Of a stretch of DNA of 44,571 nt, positions 74 to 41,256 are shown piece by piece. Both the position numbers and the translations under genes were made by a program. The notes below the pieces were generated by a model. It did not search any database, was not told where the DNA came from, and was given only the letters and a program-made list of their open reading frames with translations. Every line of letters starts with the position of its first letter. Position 1 is the first letter of the stretch. Location of the stretch: contig JAZGEP010000054.1 in NCBI GenBank assembly GCA_036478815.1, positions 1 through 44,571 on the forward strand, written 5' to 3'. The stretch comes from Methylococcales bacterium. GTDB taxonomy: Bacteria; Pseudomonadota; Gammaproteobacteria; Methylococcales; DRLZ01.

Positions 74-233
74 GGAGTGAGGATTTAATAAGTTACCGAA
101 GTTTGGCGCAGCATTTTGATTTCACAGGAGCACTCATAAAATGGGCGCATAGCTGGCTACGCAACTATTTTATGAGTGCTCCTGTGGGATCAAAAGGCAA
201 GTCAAAATTGGGAAGTTATTAAATCCTCACTCC
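74..233 (+). mobile_element. MITE class A, copy A1 (160-bp full-length hairpin)
   Basis: Termini GGAGTGAGGATTTAATAA / TTATTAAATCCTCACTCC, flanked by TTA (71-73) and TTA (234-236). Near-identical copies at 25807-25966 and 31459-31620 (inverted). Apical core GGGCGCATAGCTGGCTACGCAAC. Strand is defined by core orientation. Confidence 0.85.
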
Positions 234-275
234 TTAGTTAGGCCTAACGCTGAAGAATGTGATTTACATTGGTTA

Positions 276-300
276 GGAGCGAGGATTTAATCATTTCCGG
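276..300. repeat. Solo class-A terminus fragment
   Basis: GGAGCGAGGATTTAATCATTTCCGG preceded by TTA. It matches class A left termini, but the rest of the element is absent and B1 starts 9 bp later. Confidence 0.6.
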
Positions 301-308
301 ACGTATTA

Positions 309-467
309 GGTGGTTTGACGAAATAAAGTTACCAACCTTGCTTATCTTTTTGCTCCTGACCAACGCAATCTCAATCGTTGCGTAGAATGACTATGCGCCT
401 TTTGAGATGGTTCGGTCAGAAACAAAAATCCTGCGCAATCTTGATAACTTTATTCCGTCAAACCACC
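309..467 (-). mobile_element. MITE class B, copy B1 (159-bp hairpin)
   Basis: Termini GGTGGTTTGACGAAATAAAGTTACCAA / ...CGTCAAACCACC, flanked by TTA (306-308) and TTA (468-470). Second copy at 36656-36815. Core TTGCGTAGAATGACTATGCGCC is the reverse complement of the shared core. Confidence 0.85.
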
Positions 468-502
468 TTATTAACGTTGTGATTCAAAAAAACCAGGAAA
501 CA

Positions 503-1237
503 TCAGTTGATCGATGCCTGTGCAAGTATGATGGTTATATTGTCCTGCCCCCCTCTTTGCAACGCTAAATCCATCAGATGATCAACTGCTTGCTGATAAG
601 ACATCTGTCTAAGAACATCTTCAATTTCACTATCCGTCACTTCTTTGTTTAAACCATCACTACACAGTAGAAAAACATCTTCATGCCTGAATTCCTGGAT
701 TTGTGCGTCTAAATACACTTCTTGTTCACCACCAATTGCATGGGTTAATGTTTGCGCATAAGGATGCTCTTTTATCTCTTCCGGACTTAATCCTTCAGCC
801 ATCAATGTCGATTCATGATTGTGATCATGCGTTATCTGTTTTAACTCTCCGCGTCGTAACAGATAAATTCGGCTATCACCTGACCAAATTGCGACACAAT
901 TGAGCTGATTTGCATATAAAATGGCTACTGTGCTGCCAACAACCTCATTTTCACCAGCCAATTCAGCCTGTTCGATTAATAGTTGATTAACGCTATCTAA
1001 TTGCAGATAAATTTTCTTAACCGATGCGCCTAATGTTTTTTCCGCTTCAAATTGGTTTAAACGATTAACAATCTCAGCACTGGCAAACTCACCATCTTTG
1101 TGTCCGCCCATGCCATCAGCTACAACCCATAGGCACTGATCCGGCAAATTAACAAATGCATCCTGATTAACCTGACGAACCATGCCTACGTGTGTGCTTC
1201 CATAGGAAGACCACACTATGTTATTGTTTGGTTTCAT
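503..1237 (-). CDS. pppA: PP2C-family Ser/Thr phosphatase, T6SS-associated (PppA-like)
   Basis: Motifs STHVGMVRQVNQDAF and ADGMGGHKDGEFAS, C-terminal GGQDNITI. It lies directly downstream of tagF, as in the H1-T6SS. I trimmed the start from the ORF-track 1333 to the ATG at 1237 (MKPNNNIVWSS...). The 32-codon extension is repeat DNA also found at 33677-33723. About 244 aa. Confidence 0.85.
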   Translation of the reverse strand: MKPNNNIVWSSYGSTHVGMVRQVNQDAFVNLPDQCLWVVADGMGGHKDGEFASAEIVNRLNQFEAEKTLGASVKKIYLQLDSVNQLLIEQAELAGENEVVGSTVAILYANQLNCVAIWSGDSRIYLLRRGELKQITHDHNHESTLMAEGLSPEEIKEHPYAQTLTHAIGGEQEVYLDAQIQEFRHEDVFLLCSDGLNKEVTDSEIEDVLRQMSYQQAVDHLMDLALQRGGQDNITIILAQASIN

Positions 1238-1255
1238 CGTTCTAGCATGTGCAAT

Positions 1256-1665
1256 GGGGTGCTGATTCAGCACAATCTCCATTATGTAGTTCTTTATCCT
1301 GTTTAAGACTTGATTTTTCACCATGAAGGACATGAAGAGATTAGTAATTTTTCAAAATATAATGGTTCTAGGAGGCTGTCCGAGAATAGAAGCCGTAGCG
1401 AGGGAAAGCGGTTTTGAGTCCATTGTTTCGATTAAATGAGACGAATACTTGCTGTATTGAATGAATGTAATCGGAAAAATGGGCTGAAATTCGCTTTTCC
1501 GCAGTAGGCTTTCTATTCTCGGACAGCTTCCTAGTCGTGAACAAGCGCTGAGTACATTGTTGCAGCATCCATCGGTGCTATAAAATTGTGTGTGCAACGC
1601 ACCCTTATCTCTTTTCTTCATGGTCTTCATGGTAAAAATTAATAACATCATATGGAATCAGCCCC
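1256..1665. mobile_element. Composite MITE class I, copy I-1, carrying nested C1
   Basis: Long imperfect inverted arms: GGGGTGCTGATTC...CACCATGAAGGACATGAAGA on the left and TCTTCATGGTCTTCATGGTAAAAATTAATAA...GAATCAGCCCCC on the right. The second copy is at 33677-34064. Class C element 1368-1534 is inserted in its centre. Confidence 0.7.
1368..1534 (+). mobile_element. MITE class C, copy C1 (167 bp)
   Basis: CTA-GGAGGCTGTCCGAGAATAGAAGCC ... GGCTTTCTATTCTCGGACAGCTTCC-TAG, foldable end to end. Four further full copies and one half copy lie in the window, all in the same orientation. Confidence 0.9.
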
Positions 1666-1716
1666 CGTGCTATGAATAGCCAAGCAACTGAAGTTACAAG
1701 CTATTTTTGAAATCAG

Positions 1717-2457
1717 CTAAATTGGATAGCGATTGCCATCCCAGCCCCATTTTTGCCAATCCCCATCAAACATTGCTGCTACTCCATCAAAAGGTGGCAG
1801 TCCTGCACACATTAAAACCGATGAAGCAACCTGTTCAGATCCTTGTGTCCACCATACACTGTAGGCAAAATAGTGTTCTTTAAGCACAGTATCAAGAAAA
1901 CAGGGTATTACATCAGCAATTGATTGATTGGGAGCCATTTCGCGTTGCCAGGCATGATGAGAGATTTGTTTATTGATTTGCTCTGAAGGAGTCAGTAATT
2001 GATTGTTATTAATAAATAATTCAGCACTCAATTCATTAATTTCAATATTAAATTGTTCCAGACTAAAGTCATCATCCAAACTCGAAAGAGCTAATGTTTC
2101 CACACCAGTAAACCATGCTGTTTCCTGTTGCAATGCCACCAATGGATTACTATTCAATCGATTCATCGTGGTAATGGTCATTGGATAATATCGACCGACT
2201 TTGTCTACACTCGGCATCATAATCCCTAGCCAGCTGTTTTCACCACAAACTCCTGGGGCTAAAACAAATCGATAGATCGGACCTGTAAGATAACAATTTA
2301 GCCAGTCATCTCCGAGTTGCTGACGACTAGTAATAACAGCCTCTTGCAACCAGGTATCCCATGGGTCAATAAAGCTTGTCGGCAAACCTCGACTGACAAA
2401 ATCACCATGTGTGGGAACCTTGCCATAATAACCGTTTGTTAAAGACTGTTTGGACAT
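1717..2457 (-). CDS. tagF: Type VI secretion-associated protein TagF (DUF2094 family)
   Basis: N-terminal YGKVPTHGDFVSRGLP signature. Its start overlaps the tssM stop by 19 nt. Position between tssM and pppA matches the H1-T6SS. Confidence 0.85.
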   Translation of the reverse strand: MSKQSLTNGYYGKVPTHGDFVSRGLPTSFIDPWDTWLQEAVITSRQQLGDDWLNCYLTGPIYRFVLAPGVCGENSWLGIMMPSVDKVGRYYPMTITTMNRLNSNPLVALQQETAWFTGVETLALSSLDDDFSLEQFNIEINELSAELFINNNQLLTPSEQINKQISHHAWQREMAPNQSIADVIPCFLDTVLKEHYFAYSVWWTQGSEQVASSVLMCAGLPPFDGVAAMFDGDWQKWGWDGNRYPI

Positions 2458-5400
2458 CTAAATGCTTTTAAGTCAGCTAATTGAAAAGGATTCACCGCAC
2501 TATTTGCCAGCAATTCAAACTTGGCTTCACGCCCCTGAATTCTAAACGTCATAATAAATATTGAAGGATTAGAGGTACGAGTAATTTGGGCTTCATCAAA
2601 AAACCGAAATAACGCCCAAGGTCCTTCTTTTGATAAACCCGAGTGCCCTTGCAACGGCGGTAACATTTGTATTCGCACCTGCCTAGAATCATTTGGGCCA
2701 GGCCACTTCATTGCGACAGGTCTTACTGGCCCATGCGCATACGTTAAAGTTTGCCCATCGACATCCATTATAAATTGGACAATAGCTGGGCTCATCGAAA
2801 TCGGTTTTAGCCTAAAACTGACCTTTGGAGATTGTTTACCCATACGAAAAAATATTTTTTGTATATTATCTGCTCGCTGAAATTGCTGTAATGCAACAGA
2901 TGAGACAGCAGCACCCCCGCCTCCTCGACTATTCCAGCGCCAGCGCCTGCCTCCTTTTTCTACCGATGCAAGCAGGTACTTATTGAAAAATTCATCCATT
3001 AAGCCACCTGGTCCAAAAAAATAGGTAAAGTCTTCGAAGGTAATTTCTCTTGTATTTGTTGCTATTGGGTACAAGCCTTGAATCGCTTTTTGACAAAACG
3101 GCAACACTTCGGATCGCCACATTGCATTCAGGTGCTTTCTGACACCTCCGCTCACCAAGCTTTTACTACTATCAGCCACCTTAGCCATCATCGTGTTGAC
3201 TGGAAAAGGCGTTCTCTTTCCTTCCAGTTTGACTTTCTCAATGACCTGGATGATTTGTTGGCGTTGCTCTAACACCAGCTCATCACCGCTCGCATGAATG
3301 AGTGAATTAAGATACACATATAATTCATTTAAAACAGAAAGAGTGCGACCCAAAGGTGGCGGCACACCGTCTTTACTTTGTACAAGTTCATGCAAGCTTT
3401 TAAAATGTTCGATAACAATATTAGTTGTGATGCCTGGAGCTACCGCAGCATGCGGTGCCGATGTGCGACTCATTATTCTATCGAGCTCAGATCGTGCAGA
3501 ATCCAATCGATCACTTGCTTTGGCCAAAATCGATGTATCTTTATTGGACAAACATTTCATACTGGTTTCTTGGGCAACTGACTCAAGAAATAATTTTATC
3601 GGAGAATGCTCTCCTGAAATAATATTGAGAACCTCAACCATTTGTGCTTGATTAGAAAAAGGCTTGATTTGAATATCATCCAGCAAGTCGTCCCAATGCC
3701 TGATATAGTCTTTCAAATATAGGTTTAAAACGCTCTCAGTTAACGCATCTACCTCTGCAGCTGAAAAAATCACTTCCTGTGTGGTTCCAAATACCCAGTT
3801 ATTGCCTGCTTGCTGACCAATTAATTTTTCATTCTTTTTCAAAAAAACATCTTTATAGCCTTTACAGGTGAAAAACCCAGGAACACCTTTGGTCAAAGGG
3901 TTACCATTTTTACTGGATAATACCAGTGCTGCATCTCTGCCAGCTTTTTCACTGACTCGATAGTCAGTTATTTTTTTCTTGTTTAATTCCAGCTTCAAAC
4001 GCGCATAAATCCTTTCAGCCATCGGTGTATTTTGTAATAGTTCTCGTGTCTGCCTCACCAAAATAGTATTTAAAGGGCGAGGCAATGGTGTCGGACGATT
4101 TTCAAATAAAACAGCCAAATGCTGATTCAACGATTGCCGCTGATCTGTCGTTACTTCAACGGGCAAATTATACTTCCAGTCCAGTTGATACCAGTCCTCT
4201 ATCGCACTAGCATCATAATGTTCCGAATTAGCTAACATTAAATAAACCTTGAGGGATTCATATAAATAGTCAGTATTATTGGTATTGCTTTGTAATTGAT
4301 TTTCAATACGAAACACCAAGCGAGGCAAAAAAACATCTTTAAGCAATCTGCGATACATAGAAACCGCTGCATCCCCTAACTTGTCACCTTGATACAAACC
4401 AAAAGACAAGAACCATGGCGTGTTTTTTTGTTGATCCACATACCCCCCAGGAATATTTCGTGTTTCTTCCAATAGCGATAAAATTAATAATGGATTGGTT
4501 TCCTGAGGATTAATATCGCTAATCTTTTGTTGAATAACGGATGTCTGTATAGCCACTCCTTTAATATAGGTTTTATTTTTAACATAGCTGGTCATCCAGG
4601 CAAATGCCATTAATGCTGTCAGCGCTGTTACTCCAATAAATGCGCCTTGCTGAAACCAATGGCGTTTTTTTTCTTGTTTCAGATTGGCACCAGCCAGCCC
4701 GGATTCAGCAAAAATGACTCTTCGTAACAGACTATTAATAAAAAAACTTTTGCCTTGACCTGTTGCAACTGATTGGGCGTGATGGTCAAGTCCAAAATTG
4801 TTGGACAAAGCCCCCATAATACGGTCTATAGGAGACCCTTCCTGAGTTGCGCTGGTAAAATACACACCTCGAAACATGGCCTCATGCGCGTAACGACTGG
4901 ATAGAAAAAGTTCCTCAAGAAATGGGGTAATCAGTTTATTCAATGCACTGAACTGTTGAGGAAAGGTATAAATCTGATTGCGTCTTGCTCCGCCCCTTTC
5001 GCGTTCCAGTTTACCCAGTAAATGTTTTTGCAATTGTTGTTGTAACAATTCGAATTCAAATTTGAATTGTTTAACAGTATTTTGTTTTTCCTGTTCATTT
5101 AGCTGGAAAGTCATCCCCCAAACCTGAGAACGATTATCTCTGTCCAGGTCATCAAAATATTCCATAAACCCGGCTAACAAATCACATTTTGTAAATAGCA
5201 AATACACTGGAAAACGAATATTGAATCGTTCGTGTAATTCTTCAATTCGCTTACGAATCATTCTGGCTTGAACGAGGATTTGATCACTATTTTGTTGAAG
5301 CAAATCAGAAATACTGACTGCAATCATTACTCCGTTGATAGGACGTCGACTGCGATTTTTTTTCAAAAGATCCAAAAAACCTAACCATGCAGCCTGATCG

Positions 5401-5999
5401 ACTGACTCATGACTGTCTTGTGTTGTATAACGTCCTGCCGTATCGAGTAATACGGCATCATCGGCAAACCACCAGTCACAATTCCGTGTTCCGCCTACAC
5501 CACGAACAGCATCCTTGCCATAGCGGTCAGATAGGGGAAATTTTAAATCTGAATTCTGTAATAAAGTTGTTTTGCCTGAACCAGGTGGCCCAATAAGGAT
5601 GTACCAAGGCAATTGATAAAGAAATTGCCTTTCAGGGCCACGTCCCAAACGTGTTTTCTTTAGAATCTCAAGCGCATCCTCCATCCTGTTTTTCAAGGTA
5701 TTCAATTCATCCTGCGACGCCTGCTCATCTGGATTTGAAACAGATTCTGTTTCACCAACCATCGCGGCTATCACCTGGTTATTTTGTCTTTTTGCTTTGA
5801 AATAACCCCATAGTCGAAGCACTATCCAGAGCAGAAGAACGAAACCGATTAACACCCATCGATTAAATTCAGACTCTAAAGGTACATAATCAGCAAACGC
5901 AAACAAAGGACCGATAAACCAGATCAATAAACCTAATGCAACGACACCAAGCAGAGTGATCAACCAGCGCTGTTTAATAAAATTGAACAACCTTTTCAT
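2439..5999 (-). CDS. tssM: T6SS membrane-complex protein TssM (IcmF)
   Basis: 1186 aa. N-terminal TM helices, Walker A GPPGSGKTT, long periplasmic C-terminal region. Gene context tssL-tssM-tagF. Confidence 0.95.
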   Translation of the reverse strand: MKRLFNFIKQRWLITLLGVVALGLLIWFIGPLFAFADYVPLESEFNRWVLIGFVLLLWIVLRLWGYFKAKRQNNQVIAAMVGETESVSNPDEQASQDELNTLKNRMEDALEILKKTRLGRGPERQFLYQLPWYILIGPPGSGKTTLLQNSDLKFPLSDRYGKDAVRGVGGTRNCDWWFADDAVLLDTAGRYTTQDSHESVDQAAWLGFLDLLKKNRSRRPINGVMIAVSISDLLQQNSDQILVQARMIRKRIEELHERFNIRFPVYLLFTKCDLLAGFMEYFDDLDRDNRSQVWGMTFQLNEQEKQNTVKQFKFEFELLQQQLQKHLLGKLERERGGARRNQIYTFPQQFSALNKLITPFLEELFLSSRYAHEAMFRGVYFTSATQEGSPIDRIMGALSNNFGLDHHAQSVATGQGKSFFINSLLRRVIFAESGLAGANLKQEKKRHWFQQGAFIGVTALTALMAFAWMTSYVKNKTYIKGVAIQTSVIQQKISDINPQETNPLLILSLLEETRNIPGGYVDQQKNTPWFLSFGLYQGDKLGDAAVSMYRRLLKDVFLPRLVFRIENQLQSNTNNTDYLYESLKVYLMLANSEHYDASAIEDWYQLDWKYNLPVEVTTDQRQSLNQHLAVLFENRPTPLPRPLNTILVRQTRELLQNTPMAERIYARLKLELNKKKITDYRVSEKAGRDAALVLSSKNGNPLTKGVPGFFTCKGYKDVFLKKNEKLIGQQAGNNWVFGTTQEVIFSAAEVDALTESVLNLYLKDYIRHWDDLLDDIQIKPFSNQAQMVEVLNIISGEHSPIKLFLESVAQETSMKCLSNKDTSILAKASDRLDSARSELDRIMSRTSAPHAAVAPGITTNIVIEHFKSLHELVQSKDGVPPPLGRTLSVLNELYVYLNSLIHASGDELVLEQRQQIIQVIEKVKLEGKRTPFPVNTMMAKVADSSKSLVSGGVRKHLNAMWRSEVLPFCQKAIQGLYPIATNTREITFEDFTYFFGPGGLMDEFFNKYLLASVEKGGRRWRWNSRGGGGAAVSSVALQQFQRADNIQKIFFRMGKQSPKVSFRLKPISMSPAIVQFIMDVDGQTLTYAHGPVRPVAMKWPGPNDSRQVRIQMLPPLQGHSGLSKEGPWALFRFFDEAQITRTSNPSIFIMTFRIQGREAKFELLANSAVNPFQLADLKAFRCPNSL

Positions 6000-6077
6000 C
6001 TCTAAAATCCTTTTTTCCGCTTGCTAACGTGCATGACAAAATATTATTTGATTCGACGGCTCAGCTCAGCGACTGAT

Positions 6078-7388
6078 TTATTTCAATAATGTAATCTCAA
6101 CGCGACGATTTCTTGCGCGTCCCACTCGGCTAGCATTTGATGCAATTGGATCCAGGTCAGAGCGTCCTTCGATTATTGTTCTATCTGGATCAGATAAATT
6201 TTGTTTGATAATACTAGCAACGGCTTGGGCTCTTGCTGTTGATAAATGCCAATTTGATGGAAACCGTGCACTTCGAATAGGTTGATTGTCAGAATGACCA
6301 GTAATTAAAACTTGGCCATTGAGCTGATTCAAAGCCTCTGAAATGGTATGCAAAAGAGGCCGTATGGAATTAGTGACAGTAGCACTGCCAGAGCCAAACA
6401 GGTTGTCACCTTGAATTGTAATAGTACTGCGTTGCACTAATTCAGTGACATTGACTCGATTTCGGTTGATTTCTTCCGCCAGTAATATCGATAATGTTAT
6501 TTCAGGTATCGGCGTATATTCGTCAACAGGCTCTATTGTGGCATGTTGGTGAACAGGCGGTTTGATAGCAAACATCTGTCTAAACACTGGATCTGAATCC
6601 TTGTTTAACTGATACAAGAAAACGCTAAACATCATTGCCAACAAACCTGCCGCAATGGCTCCAAAAACCCATAGTGGAACAAATCGAGCCAAGGGATTAC
6701 GTCGATCAGTCACACCTTTCCAATGTGGGGACAACGCATATTCCACCGTCCCTCTTTCCTTTTGGAGAAGCTGATACAACCATTCTCTGATGCTTGCTAG
6801 TTTGTTTTTTCCACCTTCTATAATGCGATATCGCCCTTCAAACCCTAATGCCAGACACAGATACATCAATTCTAATAACCCTCTGTTTTTAGCCGGATTC
6901 TGCGCCAATGATTTCAGTAAATGAAAAAAACGCTCACCGCCAGAGACTTCTTTGTGAAACAGGCTCAATAAACTTTGCTGTGCCCAACCGCTGTTATTTC
7001 CCCACGGTGTATTGATAACAGCCTCATCCAAAACGGTACACATTACATAGCGAGCACTGGAGATTGTTTGCGAATCCACATTTTCAGCTTGCGCTGTGAT
7101 CTGAAATTGTTCTATTTCACGAATTATTTTATTTTTTAACTCGCGTGGATCTGCCTGATTATGTGAGCAATTAATACGCGTCATTAAGGCCAATAAGCCC
7201 GACGCTGCTTTTTCTAGTGGGTTGAGTCGCCCCAGTCTGGGTAGGGGCTGGCTTGTTCCTGATAGAGAAGCTCGTGCGGGAGGCGGTGTTTGGATATCGG
7301 ATCGTTTACCACCTGGTACCGGACGAATAATGGTTCTATCGTCAGATGGCGGAGAAAAGAAAGGATCAAAAGGATCATCTGATGTCAT
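6078..7388 (-). CDS. tssL: T6SS TssL (DotU) with C-terminal OmpA-like peptidoglycan-binding domain
   Basis: DotU-like cytoplasmic domain, a single TM segment (WVFGAIAAGLLAMMFSVFLY), and an OmpA-like C-terminus (ITGHSDNQPI...NRRVEITLL). Confidence 0.9.
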   Translation of the reverse strand: MTSDDPFDPFFSPPSDDRTIIRPVPGGKRSDIQTPPPARASLSGTSQPLPRLGRLNPLEKAASGLLALMTRINCSHNQADPRELKNKIIREIEQFQITAQAENVDSQTISSARYVMCTVLDEAVINTPWGNNSGWAQQSLLSLFHKEVSGGERFFHLLKSLAQNPAKNRGLLELMYLCLALGFEGRYRIIEGGKNKLASIREWLYQLLQKERGTVEYALSPHWKGVTDRRNPLARFVPLWVFGAIAAGLLAMMFSVFLYQLNKDSDPVFRQMFAIKPPVHQHATIEPVDEYTPIPEITLSILLAEEINRNRVNVTELVQRSTITIQGDNLFGSGSATVTNSIRPLLHTISEALNQLNGQVLITGHSDNQPIRSARFPSNWHLSTARAQAVASIIKQNLSDPDRTIIEGRSDLDPIASNASRVGRARNRRVEITLLK

Positions 7389-7393
7389 AATCT

Positions 7394-8731: not shown

Positions 8732-8761
8732 ATAATCACCTAAATACGGGTCGTTTAACTG

Positions 8762-9250
8762 CTATTTTCGAAAAACACTGATGCTTAGCTTGTCAACAAT
8801 CACAAATAACTGTGTGGTTTTTCCTTCCGGCAGTACTATTGAATCTCTCCAAACGGCTCGGTTAAGGTCACGATATGCCGCCGCTACTGCAATATACTGT
8901 GTACCGGGAGAGGCCTTATGTTTTAGAGTATGAATTTCACCTGGCTTAAGATGAAATTTTTCTGTGCCCAAAAGATCTGCCCCCAATGCCGACTCATGGT
9001 TTTCAAATAAATTATAAAAATCAGACTCGGTATATTTTCCCAGACTTTTTAGCTCATAGATGCGCACAACAATCGGTGAGGGTCGATTATCGATATCAGG
9101 ATTAACAGATGCTGAAACAGATATTTTTGTATAAATAATTGTAGGAAGAGGCACTGGCTTTTTGGGTTGTGGCTCTGGCGTTTCTGGAGTAGAACTGCAC
9201 GCAGATAATAGCAATGTCAATAGAACCAAACCAGTTTGAATAGTTTTCAT
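8762..9250 (-). CDS. tssJ: T6SS outer-membrane lipoprotein TssJ
   Basis: 162 aa. Signal peptide with lipobox LLSAC. Size and position fit tssJ. Confidence 0.85.
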   Translation of the reverse strand: MKTIQTGLVLLTLLLSACSSTPETPEPQPKKPVPLPTIIYTKISVSASVNPDIDNRPSPIVVRIYELKSLGKYTESDFYNLFENHESALGADLLGTEKFHLKPGEIHTLKHKASPGTQYIAVAAAYRDLNRAVWRDSIVLPEGKTTQLFVIVDKLSISVFRK

Positions 9251-9277
9251 AGTTGATGCGTCCAGATCTTCAAAAGA

Positions 9278-11878: not shown

Positions 11879-12045
11879 CTAGGAGGCTGTCTGAGAATAG
11901 AAGACGTAGCGAGGGAAAGCGGTTTTGAGTCCATTTTTTTGATTAAATGAGGCGAATACTTGCTGTATTTAACGAATTTAATTGAGAAAATGGGCCAAAA
12001 TTCGCTTTTCCACAGTAGGCTTTCTATTCTCGGACAACCTTCTAG
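11879..12045 (+). mobile_element. MITE class C, copy C2
   Basis: CTAGGAGGCTGTCTGAGAATAGAAG...CTATTCTCGGACAACCTTCTAG. Alignable over its full length to C1. Confidence 0.9.
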
Positions 12046-13865: not shown

Positions 13866-14024
13866 GGAATGTGCATGAAATATCTTGAACATTCTGGCTG
13901 GTCTTTTTGCTTCTGAAGAAACGATCTCAATCGTTGCGTATAACAACTATGAGCCTCTTGAGATTGTTTCGTCAGAAATAAAAATCCTGCGCCATCATTG
14001 TTCAAGTTATTTCATGCACGTTTC
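13866..14024 (-). mobile_element. MITE class F, copy F1 (159 bp)
   Basis: Termini GGAATGTGCATGAAATATCTTGAACA / TGTTCAAGTTATTTCATGCACGTTTC, flanked by TAA (13863-13865) and TAA (14025-14027). The interior resembles class B (CTCAATCGTTGCGTATAACAACTATGAGCC). Confidence 0.85.
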
Positions 14025-14171: not shown

Positions 14172-14339
14172 CCAGGAGGCTGTCCGAGAATAGAAGCCGT
14201 AGCGAGGGAAAGCGGTTTTGAGTCAATTTTTCGATTAAATGAGGCGAATACTTGTTGTATTGAACGAATTTAATCGGAAAAAGGGGCCAAAACCTGCTTT
14301 TCCGCAGCAGGCGCTTTCTATTATTGGACAGCCTCCTAG
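14172..14339 (+). mobile_element. MITE class C, copy C3
   Basis: CCAGGAGGCTGTCCGAGAATAGAAGCCGTAGCGAGGGAAAGCGG...GGACAGCCTCCTAG. Full-length match to C1. Confidence 0.9.
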
Positions 14340-14519
14340 CACTCTTGACGACATCGTCTAAAGTTGACCCTTTGAAGTGGGTGTAACTTTCTCTAGCTCG
14401 TACTTCACATCAGCCTGATTACAATTGCGGGCTAGTATTTCATGCACCGTCTCAGATAATTCAATCGTATAAGCTGGTGAATTCATTTTTCAATAACAGA
14501 CATACACGGTATAACGTCG

Positions 14520-14666
14520 ATAGCTGACTTGTCTTTTATCCATTTTCTGTTTTCAAAAACAATTACATAGCTTGCTATGAGCTTTACGTTGAATCTTAAC
14601 GACGAACAGTGATTTTGACAAAAAAAATGTTTGTGCAATATGGGTGGTTTACTGGTTGCTAGCTGC
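14520..14666 (-). repeat. MITE class E, copy E2 (left terminus missing)
   Basis: GACTTGTCTTTT...ATTACATAGCTTGCTATGAGC...TGTGCAATATGGGTGGTTTACTGGTTGCTAGCTGCC followed by TAA. It matches E1, but the left terminus is absent. Confidence 0.6.
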
Positions 14667-17141: not shown

Positions 17142-17300
17142 GGCAACTGGAAAAAAATAACCCACCCATCTTACTTGCCTTTTTGTCCGTCTTCGATCTT
17201 GTTGCTTCGTTTACATAGCTTGCTATGTGCTCTACGCAACAAGATCGAAGACAAACAAAAATTCTTTGCAATATGGGTGGTTTATTTATTTCCAGTTGCC
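17142..17300 (-). mobile_element. MITE class E, copy E1 (159 bp)
   Basis: Termini GGCAACTGGAAAAAAATAACCCACCC / GGGTGGTTTATTTATTTCCAGTTGCC, with TTA on the left (17139-17141) and TTT on the right. Core TTTACATAGCTTGCTATGTGCTC. Confidence 0.8.
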
Positions 17301-17399: not shown

Positions 17400-17566
17400 C
17401 TAGGAGGCTGTCCGAGAATAGAAGCTGTAGCGAGGGAAAGTTGATTTGAGTCACGTTTTTCCATTATTTGAGGCGAATAGTTGTGCTATTTAACGAAAAT
17501 AAAGGGAAAATGTGGCCAAATTCAGCTTTTCCGCACTAGGTTCTCTATTCTCGGACAGCCTTCTAG
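17400..17566 (+). mobile_element. MITE class C, copy C4
   Basis: CTAGGAGGCTGTCCGAGAATAGAAGCTGTAGCGAGGGAAAG...CTATTCTCGGACAGCCTTCTAG. Confidence 0.9.
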
Positions 17567-19065: not shown

Positions 19066-19232
19066 CTAGGAGGTTGTCTGGGAATAGAAACCGTAGTGTG
19101 AGAAAACCGTTTTGAGTCCATTTTTTCGATTAAATGAGACAATTATTTGCTGTATTGAACGAATTTAATTGGAAAAAGAGGCCAAAACCCACTTTTTCGC
19201 AGTAGGCTTTCTATTCTCGGGAAGCCTACTGG
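19066..19232 (+). mobile_element. MITE class C, copy C5 (between oppC and oppD)
   Basis: CTAGGAGGTTGTCTGGGAATAGAAACCGTAGTG...CTATTCTCGGGAAGCCTACTGG. The most diverged full copy. Confidence 0.85.
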
Positions 19233-25806: not shown

Positions 25807-25966
25807 AGAGTGAGGATTTAATAATTTCCCGAAGTTTGGTGCAGCATTTTGATTTCACACGAGTACTCATAAAATGGGCGCATAGCAGGCTACGCAACTG
25901 TTTTATGAGTGCTTCTGTGGGATCAAAAGGCAAGTCAAAATCGGGAAGTTATTAAATTCTCACTCC
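25807..25966 (+). mobile_element. MITE class A, copy A2
   Basis: AGAGTGAGGATTTAATAA...TTATTAAATTCTCACTCC, flanked by TTA (25804-25806) and TTA (25967-25969). Collinear with A1. Confidence 0.85.
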
Positions 25967-25977
25967 TTAGAAACCGA

Positions 25978-26126
25978 AATTAAATAACTTCTGAAACTGG
26001 CATAAGCCATTTTTTGTCGAATAGTTGTTCCTGCTCAAGCCAGGAGAGCATACAGCGAGCTATACAACTATTTTCAAACACCGAAATAATGCAAAATGAC
26101 AAATCAGTTTTGGGAGTTGTTTAATA
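25978..26126 (+). mobile_element. MITE class H (single copy in window)
   Basis: Arms AATTAAATAACTTCTGAAACTG / CAGTTTTGGGAGTTGTTTAATAT. Centre GAGCATACAGCGAGCTATACAAC, a variant of the shared core. Confidence 0.6.
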
Positions 26127-26434
26127 TAGTCTCCTTATTATCCTTAAACATGCATACTGGTGACAAGACAATTCCAACAAAAATAATCAGGAAATATTAA
26201 TTGTTTTGTAGCTTACGGCATGGAAAGTTGAGAAATTGAGCATTCAGGCCTAGTCTGTTGATCCATCTTCTTCGCTGCAGCAATTGTTACATTACTCAAG
26301 AATGATAGGATCAAGTCGCGCTATCAAGTGCCAGTCTCCAGAAATTCATCCAGTGATGCTTTTCATTTTAGTCAGTAACTCAACGTTCATTTGCGCTTAT
26401 TTCAATACTGCAATCTCACTTTACTCTTGTACAT

Positions 26435-27763: not shown

Positions 27764-27949
27764 TAATCGTCCCAGACAGTTTTCGCCATCATTTACCCAG
27801 AACATGTTAAGTTTTTTAAGGGAAATGAAGATTTATTGAGTGTTTGCAATGGCACGCAGTTGTACCAAAAAAAAGCACTATTATCTCACAGTCAGTTGAC
27901 AATCTTTACGTTACGCCTCGATTATTAAGGATGTAGTATTAAAAAAGAG

Positions 27950-28004
27950 GTAACTCTCAGCTTATCCTCTATTTTGTCCAATCGCTGTCTGGAAAGTGCT
28001 CATT
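27950..28004 (-). repeat. Class-D half element (D4) in the tyrS/queA divergent spacer
   Basis: GTAACTCTCAGCTTATCCTCTATTTTGTCCAATCGCTGTCTGGAAAGTGCTCATT is the reverse complement of the D2/D5 right half. Confidence 0.7.
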
Positions 28005-28098
28005 ATCAACAGATAATAATGCAATCGAGCATCGCAATTTTACCTGCTACGTTGTGTCAGATAAAATGGCATCTCATTACGGTCGATATGTCAAAGCC

Positions 28099-29441: not shown

Positions 29442-29596
29442 GGACGTGCATGAAAAAACTTCGACAACTGACTTGTCTTGTTGTCCGTCTTCGGTGTTGC
29501 CACAACAGTTACATAGCTCACAATGCGCCTGTTGCTGCGCCTTGTAGACAAACAACAATCCTGCGCCAGTTGTCGAAGTTATTCCATGCCCGTTCC
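29442..29596 (-). mobile_element. MITE with class-F-like termini and E-like interior (E3)
   Basis: GGACGTGCATGAAAAAACTTCGACAACTG...CAGTTGTCGAAGTTATTCCATGCCCGTTCC. Core GTTACATAGCTCACAATGCGCC. Confidence 0.75.
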
Positions 29597-29600
29597 TTTA

Positions 29601-29758
29601 GGAATGGAATTTCAATAACTTTATTATCCTGACTTGTTCTTTTCCTCCTGCTAAAACGATCTCAAACGTCGTGTAGAATCACTAGAGTCCTCATGAGATC
29701 GTTTAATGAGAAGAAAAACGACTTCACCAGAATGACAAAGTTATTAAATTTCCATTCC
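29601..29758 (-). mobile_element. MITE class J (single copy)
   Basis: GGAATGGAATTTCAATAACTTTAT...CAAAGTTATTAAATTTCCATTCC, flanked by TTA (29598-29600) and TTA (29759-29761). The degenerate core is GTCGTGTAGAATCACTAGAGTCC. It directly abuts E3. Confidence 0.75.
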
Positions 29759-31458: not shown

Positions 31459-31620
31459 GGAGTGAGGATTTAATAACTTTCCGATTTTGACTTGCCTTTT
31501 GATCCTACATAAACACCCATACTAATGGTTGCGTAGCCTGCTATGCGCCCATTTTATGAGTGCTCATGTGAAATCAAAATGCTACGCCATACTTCGGTAA
31601 CTTATTTAAATCCTCACTCC
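31459..31620 (-). mobile_element. MITE class A, copy A3 (inverted relative to A1/A2)
   Basis: GGAGTGAGGATTTAATAAC...TTATTTAAATCCTCACTCC, flanked by TTA (31456-31458) and TTA (31621-23). The stop codon of the DUF3144 gene lies 3-5 nt beyond. Confidence 0.85.
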
Positions 31621-33399: not shown

Positions 33400-33567
33400 G
33401 CTAACTCGTACTAAGTAATCCAATACCTTACTTGTCTTTTGCTGACTTCTACGCTGCAACTCCGGTTACATAGCCAGCTATGCGCCCTCTGTTGTGACTT
33501 GAAGACTAACTGTATTTGATCAACAAATGGCCTGCGCAATCTGGTGGGTTATTTATTGCGAGTTAGC
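33400..33567 (-). mobile_element. MITE class E variant (E4)
   Basis: Arms GCTAACTCGTACTAAGTAATCCAATACC / GGTGGGTTATTTATTGCGAGTTAGC. Core GGTTACATAGCCAGCTATGCGCCC. Starts 4 nt after the AGCS stop codon. Confidence 0.7.
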
Positions 33568-33676: not shown

Positions 33677-34064
33677 GGGTGCTGATTCAGCATAATGCCC
33701 ATTATGTGGTCATTTATCTCGTTTAAGGTAACGCACTATAAATAACCCACCAGTATTGCGCAGGATTGTTGTTTGTCTTCAAGGCGCAACGTAGGGAGCA
33801 TAGCGGGCGATGTAACCGAAGTTGCAACGCAGAAGACAGGCAATAAGACAAGTAATACTGGTGAGTTATTTATTACGCGTTGCCTAAGGCTTGATTATTC
33901 ACTATGAAGGACATGAAGAAGATGAAGGAAAGGCAACGCTAATAGAGCAAGCTGCCCCATCTCCACTACAAATAAAGCGAGTACAACTCACTCTTGTCTC
34001 TTCTCTTCATGCTCTTCATGTTCTTCATGGTGAAATTAATAATATTGTATGGAATCAGCACCCC
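33677..34064. mobile_element. Composite MITE class I, copy I-2, carrying a nested class-E element
   Basis: The left arm GGGTGCTGATTCAGCATAATGCCCATTATGTGG...GTTTAA matches 1257-1306. The right arm TCTTCATGCTCTTCATGTTCTTCATGGTGAAATTAATAA...GAATCAGCACCCC matches 1604-1665. Confidence 0.7.
33727..33884 (+). mobile_element. MITE class E copy nested in I-2 (158 bp) with TAA target duplication
   Basis: GGTAACGCACTATAAATAACCCACC...GGTGAGTTATTTATTACGCGTTGCC, flanked by TAA (33724-26) and TAA (33885-87). The orthologous position in I-1 (1301-1312, GTTTAAGACTTG) has a single TAA and no insert. Core GGGAGCATAGCGGGCGATGTAACC. Confidence 0.85.
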
Positions 34065-36633: not shown

Positions 36634-36651
36634 AATTTTCGTGCACGTTTC
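36634..36651. repeat. Solo class-F right terminus
   Basis: AATTTTCGTGCACGTTTC followed by TTA. It resembles the F2 right terminus GATTTCGTGCACGTTCC-TTA. Confidence 0.5.
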
Positions 36652-36655
36652 TTAT

Positions 36656-36815
36656 GGTGGTTTGACGGAATAAAGTTACCAAGATTGCGCAGGATTTTTG
36701 TTTCTGACCAACGCAATCTCAAGAGGCACATAGTCATTCTACGTAACGATTGAGATTGCGTTGGTCAGGAGCAAAAAGACCAGCAAGGTTGGTAACTTTG
36801 TTTCGTCAAACCACC
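36656..36815 (+). mobile_element. MITE class B, copy B2
   Basis: GGTGGTTTGACGGAATAAAGTTACCAAG...GGTAACTTTGTTTCGTCAAACCACC. TTA lies on the left (36652-54, one T from the terminus) and TAA on the right (36816-18). Core GGCACATAGTCATTCTACGTAAC. Confidence 0.85.
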
Positions 36816-36818
36816 TAA

Positions 36819-36972
36819 GTACTCGTGCATAAGTATTTTAACAATTTTACGCAGGATTTTTATCATATTCAAGGCGTACAAACAGGCACATAGTGAGCTA
36901 TGTAACTGTTTATGCAACGCTGAAGATGATAAAAAAGACAAGTAAAATGTTAAAATAATTATGGTCGAGTAC
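36819..36972 (+). mobile_element. MITE with E-like interior and F-like termini (E5)
   Basis: GTACTCGTGCATAAGTATTTTAACAATTTTAC...GTAAAATGTTAAAATAATTATGGTCGAGTAC, with TAA on the left and TTA on the right. Core GGCACATAGTGAGCTATGTAAC. Confidence 0.75.
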
Positions 36973-37059
36973 TTATCTACAGATTCCTTGTGTTGAGAGT
37001 ATTATGCTACCCTGTGCTCCAAGACATGCGCAGATACAACGGTGAAGGAGCTAATACAG

Positions 37060-37608: not shown

Positions 37609-37717
37609 GGAGCGAGGATTTAATAACTTCCATGTTTTGACTTGCCTTTTGGCTCCACAGAAGCGCTAATAAAATAGTTTCATAGTCTGTGCTATGCGCT
37701 TGTTTTATTAGCACTCT
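37609..37717 (-). repeat. MITE class A, truncated copy A4 (about two thirds)
   Basis: GGAGCGAGGATTTAATAACTTCCATGTTTTGACTTGCCTTTTGGCTCCACAG...CATAGTCTGTGCTATGCGC aligns with A3 through the core and then diverges. No right terminus. Confidence 0.75.
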
Positions 37718-37789
37718 TAGCTCAAGTTTGCCGTTTTCATCTCACAAATCGCCGTAAGTCATTGATATTGACTTCCCGTAAAAATATTT

Positions 37790-38192: not shown

Positions 38193-38222
38193 GGTTTGCT
38201 ATCTGGGTAAGATTGGAACTTC

Positions 38223-38324: not shown

Positions 38325-38625
38325 TTAATGTCAAGTAACTATTCACGTTGACTTGTTCAATATTTATGTTGTATATGTGTGATTAACTAAACTTTTGGAG
38401 TTCTACCGTGTTGTTGCCTGCTTGAGAAATCTGCGGCTTGAACTATTTTTGACTGATCTCGTTAGCCCGTCAAGTTGTCTGTGTCTTTATGTGTATTTTC
38501 AGTTTTATAATAGCATCAGTTAGGCTCAGGTATAACTTTTCGTGAACTTGCGCAAGGTGGGGGAAATGACACCCGGAAAAACTTGGTAGTGATCAGAACG
38601 GAAATATGAATTAAGGAGAAACACA

Positions 38626-39816
38626 ATGGATAATTTTGAATACATCGTTCTTCGACATGAGAATCCCTTTGTGCCTGAATCTGCAAGTGTTGGTTCAGAG
38701 TTATTGGGGGCAGGCCCAAGAGCGCCTGGATCCTCTGGTAACCCAGGATCATTGGAGCTGGAGAAAATGGCACTGAGTAAGAAAGATAAGGACGATCTTA
38801 GACGGGATCCGAGAACCCGGGCTATCGCAGTGCCGATGCCTTTGCGACTTCATGAACCGGTAGAGGCAAATCTTACTGTGTCGGCTACCACTACAACTTG
38901 GGGTGTTGATGCGGTCGGTGCCGTCAATTCAAGCTTTGATGGTAGTAATATTGTTGTTTGTGTATTGGATACTGGAATCGACCCTGGTCATGCTGCGTTC
39001 AATGGTGTGGACATCGTGCAAAAAAACTTTACCACTGAGGGTGATAATGATAACCATGGTCATGGAACTCACTGCGCGGGGACCATTTTTGGACAGGATG
39101 TAGATGGTCTTCGCATCGGTGTTGCTCGTAACATCAAAAAGGCCCTGATTGGTAAAGTTCTGGGAGAAGGCGGGGGCTCGTCCGCTACCTTGGCGAGTGC
39201 TATCAACTGGGCAGCTGAACAAGGAGCGCATGTCGTTTCAATGTCTCTGGGGATCGATTTCCCCGGATTCGTGCAACAACTTCAAGGATCCGGTATGGAT
39301 ATACGGCCAGCAACATCGATTGCACTTGAGCAATATCGGGCCAACATCAATCTATTCACCCAATTGGCCGATTTCTTGCTCGCGCGCAATGCGTTTGCTC
39401 AGGGAACAGTTGTGGTCGCCGCTTCGGGTAACGAAAGCAATCGCCCTGCATTCGAAATTGCGGCTGCACCGCCGTCTGCAGGCACTGGGATTATTTCGGT
39501 TGGTGCATTGAGCGAGGGAAACGCTGGCTTTGGCGTTGCCGGATTTTCCAATACTCAATGCAATGTCTCTGCACCGGGTGTGAATATCGTCTCCGCCAAG
39601 TTAGGTGGAGGCCTGGTTGGAATGAGTGGTACAAGTATGGCAACTCCTCACGTGGCTGGTGTTGCTACGTTATGGGCACAAAAACAATTTTCTGAGAATG
39701 GTCAGGTATCGGGCGAAAATCTAGCTGCCAATATCCTCGCTTCAGCAATCCGTACACCATTGGCTGCTGGTCTGGAAATGGATGATGTTGGCAATGGGAT
39801 TGTACAAGCGCCGTAA
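38626..39816 (+). CDS. S8-family subtilisin-like serine peptidase, no signal peptide (predicted cytoplasmic)
   Basis: Catalytic triad in D-H-S order: VCVLDTGID, HGHGTHCAGT, GTSMATPHVAG, with oxyanion Asn in AASGNES. The roughly 95-aa N-terminal region (MDNFEYIVLRHENPF...) is hydrophilic. AAGGAG RBS lies 8 nt upstream. GC content is visibly higher than in neighbouring genes. Confidence 0.85.
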   Translation: MDNFEYIVLRHENPFVPESASVGSELLGAGPRAPGSSGNPGSLELEKMALSKKDKDDLRRDPRTRAIAVPMPLRLHEPVEANLTVSATTTTWGVDAVGAVNSSFDGSNIVVCVLDTGIDPGHAAFNGVDIVQKNFTTEGDNDNHGHGTHCAGTIFGQDVDGLRIGVARNIKKALIGKVLGEGGGSSATLASAINWAAEQGAHVVSMSLGIDFPGFVQQLQGSGMDIRPATSIALEQYRANINLFTQLADFLLARNAFAQGTVVVAASGNESNRPAFEIAAAPPSAGTGIISVGALSEGNAGFGVAGFSNTQCNVSAPGVNIVSAKLGGGLVGMSGTSMATPHVAGVATLWAQKQFSENGQVSGENLAANILASAIRTPLAAGLEMDDVGNGIVQAP

Positions 39817-40076
39817 ATTGTTACTCTGAATGATTTGGTTTCTATGATCCGAGGGCTGGCAGTAAAAGCACAGGGTCTTGTGCCGACTTTCTGCACACAG
39901 GATTAAATGTTTATATCTCTCAGTAAGAATTAGGTGTCAGTCATTGAAGAATTCTCGATGCAATGCTGGCACCCATTCTTATCATTGAACTTGATATTCA
40001 TTTCCCTTCTATCTTTACTTGATCTGTAAACGATAGGGGATCACCTTTTTTGTCCCTCAAGAACGAGGAGTCAAGA

Positions 40077-40742
40077 ATGAAGCAAGGAGTAAAATCAATT
40101 TTTATTATTTCCCTTTTGATGAACGTCCTGATAACGATTCCTGCATTAATATTGCTGATGTATAGTTCAGGCATACAATATCATCTCTACCAAAACATAT
40201 TGGCGCCTAAGTTAGGGCGTCCCGAAATTGCATTCATCGGTGATTCTATAACAAGAGACGGTGGTATTTGGGCATTTAAAATAGGTGAATATAATTTCAA
40301 TACATGGAATTTTGGACACGGTGGATTAACCACACGACAATTGCGTCTTTATGGTAAAAGAGTTGCTAATCTTCGTCCAAAAGTTGCGTTCGTTATGGCT
40401 GGTATTAATGATGAAGATAAGAGCCTTGCAGGAGCGCATTTATCATTTGGATACTACGTAGAAATTTTGGATAAACTACAAGAGTTTGGAGTTGAACCCA
40501 TCATTCAGTTGACTTTATATCGGGAAGAAGAACAATTTGTAGAGTTTGTAGAGACACTTAATAATAAATTGCGTGAATATGCTGCTGAACACAACTTATC
40601 TGTTATCGACTTAAATCCACTTCTTTGTCCAAGTCAATCATTACTTCCAAAATATTCTCGAGATGGGACTCACCTCACTAAAGCTGCATATAAAATCTGG
40701 TCTAAAGAAATCAGAAAAACACTAAACAATAAAAATCTCTGA
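40077..40742 (+). CDS. SGNH/GDSL-family hydrolase with N-terminal membrane anchor
   Basis: The four SGNH blocks are present: FIGDSIT, GHGG, GINDE, DGTHLT. One TM helix (IFIISLLMNVLITIPALILLMY). Start at the ATG at 40077 with a GAGGAG RBS; the ORF-track TTG at 40050 is unlikely. Confidence 0.8.
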   Translation: MKQGVKSIFIISLLMNVLITIPALILLMYSSGIQYHLYQNILAPKLGRPEIAFIGDSITRDGGIWAFKIGEYNFNTWNFGHGGLTTRQLRLYGKRVANLRPKVAFVMAGINDEDKSLAGAHLSFGYYVEILDKLQEFGVEPIIQLTLYREEEQFVEFVETLNNKLREYAAEHNLSVIDLNPLLCPSQSLLPKYSRDGTHLTKAAYKIWSKEIRKTLNNKNL

Positions 40743-40900
40743 CAAACAGAATATTTATGGTCAGTGAAGTGAAAAGAGTGTCTTGCAATAATGTAATTTC
40801 AGAATCACAGAATCAAATGTTAGATTGCAAGACTTGGCAGTATTAGGGCCAGACTCGATTGAAAATAAAGTTATAAAATAATTATCTCTCTCGTGCGCCT

Positions 40901-40990
40901 AGCAGCTAACCACTTCTCAGCTCCCTATACCCGGCAATATCACATTGAAAGACTACTAGTGAGACATGGGGGTTAGGGCCATCTGTCCTG
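40901..40990 (+). repeat. Repeat G, copy 2
   Basis: ...CTATACCCGGCAATATCACATTGAAAGACTACTAGTGAGACATGGGGGTTAGGGCCAT aligns with 12441-12530. Confidence 0.55.
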
Positions 40991-41100
40991 CTATGAATTG
41001 TTTGTAACTCAGTTCCATGTATTTTTGATTAAAGTTTCCACATCCTTTGCCGACATCTATAAAGTATCCGTAGGAATTTTTCTTTATGAATTATTGTATA

Positions 41101-41256
41101 GGAACGTGCACAAAATCACTTGGTCAACAGGTATAGAATTTTTGTCTGTCTTCAAGGTACAGCGAAGGGCGCATAGCGAGCTATTCAACCGTAGCTGCAA
41201 CGCGGAAGACGGATAAAAAGACAAGTCAGTTGACCAAGTGATTTCGTGCACGTTCC
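41101..41256 (+). mobile_element. MITE class F, copy F2
   Basis: GGAACGTGCACAAAATCACTTGGTCAAC...GTTGACCAAGTGATTTCGTGCACGTTCC, followed by TTA. Core GGGCGCATAGCGAGCTATTCAACC. Confidence 0.85.

Follow-up and report, generated by a model that had tools for sequence, protein, structure and literature searches.

Miniature transposable elements of a Methylococcales bacterium carry a conserved, strand-asymmetric hairpin module common to several families of terminal repeats

Results

Hairpin elements between ordinary chromosomal genes

The 44,571-nt contig JAZGEP010000054.1 of a Methylococcales bacterium (assembly GCA_036478815.1), analysed here over its whole length and called the window below, holds ordinary chromosomal genes, among them those for an Opp-type transporter, fabI-like and surA/ppiD-like proteins, tyrS, queA, gatB, PBP1, folE and a tRNA-Leu, and in its intergenic spaces hairpin elements of 155-162 bp that contain no open reading frame (ORF), 21 of them once decayed copies are included. 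These are miniature inverted-repeat transposable elements, or MITEs, being small, non-coding and bounded by inverted repeats at their termini (TIRs) and by target duplications in direct repeat, with an autonomous partner for one class of ends (class F), and they share a short conserved motif, the core, at the hairpin tip. We identified them as matches to a covariance model of the inner hairpin, to which decayed copies were added by reading the sequence. Together they cover 3278 bp, or 7.35% of the window (7.9% once two unrelated hairpin repeats are counted in), which is less than the roughly 10% that an earlier note, made from the sequence alone, had tallied by hand, while their number exceeds the at least 15 claimed there. 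No transposase was found in the window.

The core motif stands far above chance. Allowing up to two mismatches, RGGCRCATAG-N4-CTAYGYAAC matches the window nine times where 0.00 matches are expected, and the form with an N5 loop, allowing up to three, matches four times where 0.02 are expected, which makes thirteen cores together. The covariance model recovers 15 copies of one kind (type 1) along with weaker and partial matches to a second (type 2).

Among the type-1 MITEs (bits are scores against the model of the inner hairpin), class A ends (GGAGTGAGGATTTAATAA) bound the elements at 74..233 (plus strand, TTA/TTA duplication, core 143-165, 102.9 bits), 25807..25966 (plus, core 25876-25898, 94.9 bits) and 31459..31620 (minus, TAA/TAA, core 31528-31550, 87.1 bits), the last being absent from the examples quoted in the earlier note, and class B ends (GGTGGTTTGACGRAATAAAG) bound those at 309..467 (minus, TAA/TAA, core 377-400 with an N5 loop, 113.2 bits) and 36656..36815 (plus, core 36724-36747, 112.9 bits). 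The ISAzo13-type ends of class F occur at 13866..14024 (minus, TTA/TTA, core 13933-13956, 80.8 bits), where the inner hairpin is of the same type as in class B, at 29442..29596 (minus, core 29508-29530, 110.7 bits) and at 41101..41256 (plus, core 41167-41189, 99.3 bits); class E ends (GGCAACTGGAAAWAAATAACC) occur at 17142..17300 (minus, core 17210-17232, 107.3 bits). Class E-like ends are found at 33727..33884 (plus, TAA/TAA, core 33794-33816, 111.2 bits) and, inverted relative to it, in a copy at 33400..33567 with a partly rearranged left arm (minus, core 33465-33487, 50.5 bits). Other type-1 MITEs end in GGAATGGAATTTCAATAAC (29601..29758, minus, TAA/TAA, degenerate core GAGGACTCTAGTGATTCTACACGAC, 39.2 bits) and in GTACTCGWSCAT..TTTTAAC (36819..36972, plus, core 36884-36906, 110.1 bits). 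The remaining type-1 copies are a decayed one with a class E-like arm at 14500..14650 (minus, core AAGCTCATAGCAAGCTATGTAAT, 38.5 bits), a decayed class A copy at 37609..37760 with one end intact and the other arm lost (minus, core AAGCGCATAGCACAGACTATGAAAC, 33.1 bits), and a copy 'H' with a truncated left end at 25975..26134 (plus, core GAGCATACAGCGAGCTATACAAC, 13.7 bits), which abuts the class A element at 25807..25966. Type-2 elements lie at 1371..1531 (plus, ends CTA followed by GGAGGCTGTCCGAGAATAG, apex GAGACGAATACTTGCTGTATTGAATGA with a co-varied apical helix), 11882..12042 (plus, core-like sequence 11950-11973, 30.2 bits over the central part only) and 17403..17563 (plus, core 17471-17494, 26.2 bits), joined by an internal fragment without ends at 14200..14305 (plus, 17.7 bits) and by a copy at 19080..19215 with both ends truncated and the core decayed (plus, 15.9 bits). 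All eight cores quoted in the earlier note lie where it had placed them (143-165, 377-400 on the minus strand, 36724-36747, 41167-41189, 33465-33487 on the minus strand, 36884-36906, 33794-33816 and, for copy H, about 26047).

At 36640-36652 a solo class F right end (CGTGCACGTTTC plus TTA) abuts the class B element, which itself abuts the next one (36656-36972); here the elements are chained through common TTA/TAA sites, as they also are at 25966/25975 and 29596/29601.

Anatomy and covariation of the inner hairpin

Read on the strand that carries GGCG...CAAC, which we call the top strand, a type-1 element runs from TTA or TAA through a TIR of the form GG-N~12-AATAA, an L island (ATTGCGCAGGATTTTTG), a helix, often AAGGCG, and an 8-bp helix into the core, (A/G)GGCG-CATAG-loop-CTAYG-YAAC, and out again through mirror helices with CAACGC, an R island (CAAAAAGACAAG), the second TIR and a closing TTA or TAA. 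The inner ~105 nt form a hairpin, hereafter the passenger, of which the core is the tip. Its three conserved islands are L, the apex (A/G)GGCGCATAG-loop-CTAYGYAAC, and R. The apex consists of a helix of 5-6 bp under a loop of 4 or 5 nt, below which G-C pairs close a conserved 2x2 mismatch of GC opposite AA, and in many copies the GGCG/CAAC mismatch returns about 12 nt, or one helical turn, lower. Among the window's copies the core holds 1.57-1.70 bits per column and the L and R islands 1.44-1.58, as compared with 0.68-1.1 in the helices and 0.74 in the loop. The apex is thus much better conserved than the arms (in round figures 1.6-1.7 versus 0.7), and the recurring sub-terminal modules of which the earlier note had spoken are real (1.4-1.6 versus 0.7 in the stems). 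That note had described the loop as the conserved part; the loop itself is variable, N4 or N5 and of any sequence, and what is conserved is the apical stem with its flanking 2x2 internal loop, GGCG...YAAC. Orientation of the core relative to the L and R modules is constant (51/51 elements). The classes can be aligned throughout the inner 105 nt, yet their decay is far from uniform, so that of the single, evenly decaying family which the earlier note had set against its own view only the alignability is seen.

Nesting of repeats was observed at several loci of our scans. At locus L055 (~7350) a type-2 element is inserted at a CTAG within the arm of a type-1 element, and elements including L048, L106, L104 and L091 have, in one arm or in both, a further recurring insert of ~50 nt (ACGACTGCAnGGATGCAGGAGGTAGAGCAAnGCAGG...TTGCCGAG) or else a small hairpin, CCGTATTTGATACGG, which gives three levels of nesting.

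The arms diverge and nevertheless stay complementary, as had been proposed. A first set combined 10 sequences of the window with 33 from other genomes, 43 in all. Of the 30 pairs predicted for it, 20 had changed on both sides; pairing held in 93.6% of cells, compared with 75.7% in column shuffles and at most 50% when the partners are slid, and double-change cells number 207 where 55 are expected. The test was repeated on an independent set of 40 copies from metagenome loci that were chosen by TIR and not by core, where 91.9% of cells are paired versus 73.1%, with 213 double changes versus 74. In diverged type-2 copies the apical helix itself has co-varied (CATAG/CTATG to AATAC/GTATT), with GGCG...YAAC kept.

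The two strands fold unequally

Folding predictions for 95 non-redundant elements favour the top strand over its complement, with RNA parameters in 85 of them (by a mean of -10.2 kcal/mol) and with DNA parameters in 87 (mean -4.3 kcal/mol). The mismatches in the arms are of the G.T type on the top strand in 516 cases and of the A.C type, that is, G.T on the bottom strand, in 303, with 73 elements leaning toward top-strand G.T and 18 the opposite way. At fixed positions the pairs cycle through U-A, U.G and C-G, and C.A is almost never seen. The covariance model likewise scores the window's type-1 copies at 33-113 bits on the defined strand versus 17-37 on the other, and scores of 80-125 bits on one strand versus 17-47 on its opposite were obtained as well. 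Relative to flanking genes the insertions are oriented at random (29 co-directional, 30 opposed), which makes a function through read-through transcription of host genes unlikely.

Ends, target duplications and an ISAzo13-family partner

The inverted ends measure 25-32 bp with 84-97% complementarity, and the flanking trinucleotides are direct repeats, TTA/TTA or TAA/TAA, and not mirror images as in a palindrome, which identifies them as a genuine 3-bp target duplication. Matched flanks were found in 21 of 42 elements from genome loci (TTA/TTA 12, TAA/TAA 9), and in nearly all of a TIR-selected metagenome set (n=69). The pattern GG-N~12-AATAA is common to the ends of classes A, B, E and F, which can be aligned on it together with the TTA/TAA duplication; the earlier claim of unrelated termini therefore fails for these four and stands only for the 'CTAGGAGGCTGTCCGA' class, our type 2. 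Its companion claim, that an identical apex occurs in elements with unrelated ends, was borne out.

Scanning metagenomes for the class F end returned four insertion sequences (ISs) of 1313-1331 bp (L136, L167, L183 and L211) with the same ends and duplications, and these are the autonomous partner of class F. Their ORF encodes an ISAzo13-family transposase (NF033519 at 462 bits with a cut-off of 200; PF07592 at 344 bits). They match the MITEs over the outer 25-30 bp only and carry neither the core nor the L or R island, contrary to the earlier expectation of an IS5-superfamily or RAYT partner with the core in its ends. An IS5-type partner was considered and rejected, as the ORF is of ISAzo13 type with a weak IS630 match only, and the class F end merely resembles the E. 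coli IS5 end GGAAGGTGCGAATAAG. The same scan gave 69 MITEs with class F TIRs, of which 25 have the core hairpin and 44 other interiors, mostly hairpins of different sequence. Since the ISs share only their ends with the MITEs, and since 44 of the 69 have other interiors, we conclude that the hairpin is a passenger, not derived from the IS, and that the transposase does not need it. The ends of classes A, B and E probably come from ISAzo13-family ISs as well, judging by the common GG-N~12-AATAA pattern and TWA duplication.

Across loci L125-L244 at least six other interiors recur between class F ends, most of them hairpins, for example AAACCTGACAGGTTT repeats, CCCTCACCCCAACCCTCTCCC-GGAG-GGAGAGGG, and GTAGGGGCGAAT...GGGCGGATAAATCCGCCCCTAC. 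Elements shorter than 80 bp were considered as empty vehicles and proved to be deletion derivatives, not empty sites.

Occurrence in other genomes

A scan of one genome per species for the exact core pattern yielded at least 113 loci, and nearly every match listed is the tip of a long hairpin. Among the 113 loci listed we found no transposase, recurrent ORF, TIR pair at IS length or split hairpin halves. The genomes with the core are assigned to at least eight phyla, and the phylum-level labels among the matches listed are Proteobacteria, Bacteroidota, Firmicutes, Nitrospirota, Myxococcota, Acidobacteriota, Desulfobacterota and 'Entotheonella'. At lower rank, again among the matches listed, the labels are Methylococcales (Methylomonas, Methylomarinum, Methyloprofundus, Methylobacter), Leucothrix, Ca. 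Venteria, Nitrosomonas, Accumulibacter, Marinobacter, Sedimenticola, Thiorhodococcus, Desulfobacterales, Nitrospirota, Entotheonella, Kofleriaceae, Acidiferrales, Chitinophagales, Haliscomenobacter, Lewinellaceae, Bacteroidaceae, Alloprevotella and Lachnospiraceae; the nearest copies of the element in this list come from Methylococcales metagenome-assembled genomes (MAGs). Some MAG assignments may be binning errors, and L014, labelled 'Saccharibacteria', looks like a Methylococcales element.

The core tip occurs inside at least five TIR families. Type 1 ends in GG-N~12-AATAA with TWA flanks, type 2 in GGAGCCTGTCCGA with CTAG, type 3 (Lachnospiraceae) in GAGCGTGTTTGAAAA with CTAG, type 4 (Bacteroidaceae) in GAAGCTGTTTAAA with TTA, and type 5 (Methylococcales) in ACTTCGCGCGGTCACGG with TATA. 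One core copy without TIRs lies on a prophage-like contig between the tail sheath and tail tube genes, and a contig from a viral collection (L118, 14380-14570) holds a head-to-tail array of at least three ~100-nt units, each with a core variant (AGGCGCATAATTACTCTATGCAAC or AGGCGCATAGTTAATCTATGCAAC). A scan of IMG/VR gave two matches only, both prophage-like. Against the PLSDB plasmids neither the elements nor the consensus nor eight core variants produced a BLAST match, even at E = 10, and the covariance model had no match in 100 kb of plasmids from Nostoc punctiforme and PCC 7120. In Rfam only the tRNA-Leu reaches its gathering score, with E values up to 10 adding only generic miRNA-hairpin matches, and a literature search with the core as a string returned only primers.

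Surroundings of the elements in the window

A proteobacterial-type type VI secretion cluster (PP2C phosphatase, TagF, TssM/IcmF, TssL/DotU-OmpA, TssK, TssJ/SciN and an FHA protein) occupies 503-10708, with hairpin elements at either end and within the PP2C-TagF spacer. Although the elements look like MITEs of Nostoc, a cyanobacterial origin of the window was rejected on the strength of this cluster and of the nearest element copies, which lie in Methylococcales MAGs. The genes switch strand at ~27800-28050, nearly all lying on the minus strand to the left of ~27.9 kb and on the plus strand to its right, and cumulative GC skew is lowest at 26-28 kb. The pattern is that of an origin-like switch or of one to divergent transcription, and no dnaA was seen. 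At 41402-41902, 145 bp downstream of a class F element, lies the gene for a minor type IV pilin that has a ComP_DUS domain, a receptor for DNA-uptake sequences. Hairpin repeats without the core were also noted. One, at 33898-34034, is built of CATGAAG/CTTCATG units, and a similar unit forms the interior of a class F MITE at metagenome locus L191, probably another type of passenger. The other, at 44143-44263, is a strong hairpin of 121 nt (about -67 kcal/mol with flanks) with ends TAATTGCTCAGATTGCCCTCTAGTTTG; it contains CAAGGCG and gives a weak model match of 18.7 bits.

Discussion

Our comparative data show that class F elements are modular MITEs with ISAzo13-type ends, and that the core-bearing hairpin is a conserved, structured passenger which folds preferentially on one strand. 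We propose, with confidence and doubt about evenly balanced, that the family as a whole consists of modular miniature transposons built of a vehicle and a passenger, in which the passenger module acts as a folded single strand. An ISAzo13-family DDE transposase would act in trans on the outer 25-30 bp of the vehicle and yield the 3-bp TTA/TAA duplications. The helices that join the three islands of the passenger change by compensation only. Because the transposase does not need the module, the conservation of the module likely reflects a function of its own, and because one strand folds much better while insertions face genes in random orientation, the module is most likely active as a folded single strand. 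That strand may be single-stranded DNA (ssDNA) laid bare during replication or transfer, or possibly a transcript. We regard the mismatch-flanked apex as the putative recognition site of a widely conserved protein, and such recognition would favour the persistence or spread of any vehicle carrying the hairpin.

Several points weigh against this proposal. A partner IS was demonstrated for class F only, the sequences used for covariation are phylogenetically non-independent, and the genome loci were picked for having the core pattern. Part of the strand bias may be inherited, in that a conserved U.G could be ancestral and a single mutation from U.G gives only U-A or C-G, and in freely varying stems the bias is modest (~23 G.U versus 8 A.C cells). 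No pair of filled and empty vehicles was found that would attest independent movement of the passenger, and DDE cut-and-paste transposition is not known to pass through a single-stranded stage. Least certain of all is a function of its own, since the module may do no more than hitch-hike.

It is conceivable, although we consider it rather unlikely, that the passenger is a structured RNA, either a small RNA or a cis-acting processing or stability element made by read-through or from an unrecognised promoter, with the internal loops as a putative protein site. The covarying helices, the conserved internal loops, the tandem G.A beside the apex in several types and the U.G wobbles at fixed positions are all RNA-like, and the gap in stability between the strands is larger with RNA parameters (-10.2 kcal/mol); yet, as there is no orientation bias to genes (29 versus 30), read-through would yield the wrong strand for one copy in two, a conserved promoter was not seen, no Rfam family was matched even at a permissive threshold, and on both strands the hairpin has a T-run on its 5' side and an A-run on its 3' side, the reverse of a terminator. 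The core or whole passenger could instead be a tiny nested mobile or convertible element that enters single-stranded foldback tips and is then carried along, similar to the small dispersed repeats (SDRs) of Elhai or to a Y1/HUH substrate like that of the REPINs, which are built from repetitive extragenic palindromic (REP) sequences. Repeats of 21-27 nt nested in MITE-like hairpins of Nostoc were reported by Elhai et al. in 2008, and the occurrence of the same apex in five TIR families, alone once in a prophage and in a tandem array, the alternative passengers of the vehicles, the GGCG...CAAC nested in itself one turn lower, the small inserts in the arms of L048, L106 and L091, and a strand specificity that agrees with Y1 systems acting on the top strand only would all fit. 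We nonetheless hold this possibility to be unlikely, as the core is always exactly apical and in a single orientation to the L and R modules (51/51), no filled/empty pair was found, the REP hallmarks are absent, with no terminal GTAG tag outside the stem, and no Y1 or RAYT gene was seen near the copies, although no systematic search was made.

A more specific candidate function, which we rate as distinctly improbable, is that of a single-strand origin or ssDNA promoter like the ssoA of rolling-circle plasmids or the Frpo of F, in which the hairpin, once the top strand is single-stranded, would recruit host RNA polymerase and a short primer would end at the apex, so that ssDNA is converted to double-stranded DNA. 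The ssoA is an orientation-specific ssDNA hairpin of ~160 nt with an RNA polymerase-binding site, RSB, at its base and CS-6 (TAGCGT/A) in its apical loop (PMC5703833, PMC4598088, PMC8860593, PMC10378824); moreover, ssDNA promoters are established in conjugative plasmids (PMC12672017). The apex of pC194 ssoA, GGCATAGCGTGAGCTATTAAGCC, resembles GGCGCATAGCGAGCTATGTAAC and is the best Smith-Waterman local match on pC194 for 5/5 core queries (three of these with p from <0.005 to 0.04), alignment to pC194 (64 versus 13) and to pE194 (53 versus 19) is better with the top strand than with the bottom one, and a universal polymerase would suit both the cross-phylum spread and the strand specificity. However, both defining motifs fail: strict CS-6 is present in 6/134 cores (TAGCGN in 27, the constant part being TAG(C/T) only), and the RSB consensus TTATGCCGAGAAAATTT with up to three mismatches has three matches in the window, none within an element, where 6.6 are expected. 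The covariance model misses the ssoA of pC194 and pE194, position-weight matrices do not rank ssoA first, nhmmer gives no support, the similarity to pT181 is not orientation-consistent (32 versus 44), and no -35/-10-like boxes were seen by eye. The element is moreover absent from PLSDB plasmids and nearly absent from IMG/VR, and a chromosomal MITE has no obvious need for such an origin. The resemblance is thus weak, and we keep it as an analogy of working, not of membership. Very unlikely, finally, is a role of the islands as double-stranded sites for a bending protein or a transpositional enhancer that pairs the ends of the 160-bp element, with complementarity arising only because binding is symmetric. 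Sharp bending is a need of short elements, the islands are placed symmetrically, and other MITEs have central protein sites, such as those for integration host factor (IHF) in Correia elements; but a double-stranded site does not require the helices between the islands to covary, the asymmetries affect folding in a strand-specific way, an IHF consensus is missing, the target duplications of elements with the same TIRs and other interiors indicate that the core is not required for mobility, and one protein would have to serve unrelated transposase families across many phyla. We also considered a dif/Xer site, as the arms resemble GCGCATA / TATGTAA, and rejected it because CATAG and CTAYG are spaced by 4-5 nt whereas the dif consensus has two arms of 11 bp about a central region of 6-8 bp. 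Readings as sites for IHF, LexA, sigma-54 or sigma-70, as attC or as a K-turn fitted poorly by eye.

Much of what we describe belongs to kinds already known, namely MITEs, their IS partners and nested small repeats. As in MITEs mobilised by ISs generally, the elements are 155-162 bp long without an ORF, have TIRs identical to those of a 1.3-kb IS and a 3-bp TTA/TAA duplication, and occur in many intergenic and often abutting copies; they differ in that the interior, instead of being left over from the IS by deletion, is a separate conserved hairpin common to other TIR families and phyla. The SDRs reportedly occur only in Nostocaceae, whereas the core is found in genomes assigned to at least eight phyla and our model had no match in 100 kb of Nostocales plasmids. 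The nearest precedents, compared here by description only, are the cyanobacterial MITE Nezha, a strongly folded element of 130-170 bp with TIRs and direct repeats as in ISNpu3 (PMC3184786), and SDR4-6 of Nostoc punctiforme, which embody the same concept of a unit of 21-27 nt recurring inside different larger repeats (Elhai et al. 2008). In a census of MITEs, 97% of clusters were confined to one genus at 95% identity (bioRxiv 10.1101/2024.01.18.576219). It has been proposed that more complex repeats are built up from REPINs (PMC3116915), and REP and REPIN sequences resemble our elements as short imperfect palindromes that form long hairpins under strand-specific selection and in high copy number. 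In REPINs, however, the arms are conserved and the tip varies, whereas here the tip is conserved and TIRs and target duplications are present; a terminal GTAG or CGTC tag is lacking, GTAG occurring only inside the apical stem of some copies, and no RAYT (not searched for genome-wide) or recurrent small ORF was found near the copies. With ssoA/palA origins and Frpo our elements have in common an imperfect hairpin of ~100-160 nt with a conserved base region and apex, which in those origins functions on one strand, and with ssoA/palA a TAGC-containing apical mini-hairpin followed by an unpaired (T)AA and, in pE194, a T5G/CA5 helix near the base. They differ from these origins in the absence of RSB, the rarity of CS-6, the lack of similarity at model level and a context of chromosomal MITEs instead of plasmids or phages. 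What appears to be new, as far as the literature and databases searched go, is a cross-phylum hairpin module that occurs in MITEs of several transposase families, covaries as RNA does and folds in a strand-specific manner.

The interiors of MITEs are usually taken as drifting filler between conserved ends, whereas in the present elements it is the interior that is conserved, as a structured module with covarying helices and fixed mismatches, common to elements with different transposase partners in bacteria as far apart as Methylococcales, Lachnospiraceae and Bacteroidaceae. In its boldest form, which we regard as improbable, our proposal would make the cross-phylum passenger a third-order genetic parasite that exploits several unrelated MITE families and is kept because universal host machinery recognises its folded strand, a candidate being priming by RNA polymerase as at plasmid single-strand origins; if so, a chromosomal repeat would function in ssDNA metabolism or horizontal establishment. 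On the practical side, the elements break assemblies, since many matches sit at contig ends, and the covariance model offers a handle for annotating them, while the link to ISAzo13 provides an experimentally tractable transposase for probing the role of the hairpin. If the passenger does have a function of its own, it would add to selfish or co-opted DNA a layer that is new, and possibly also a signal for single-strand recognition that is widespread yet unlisted in RNA and repeat databases.

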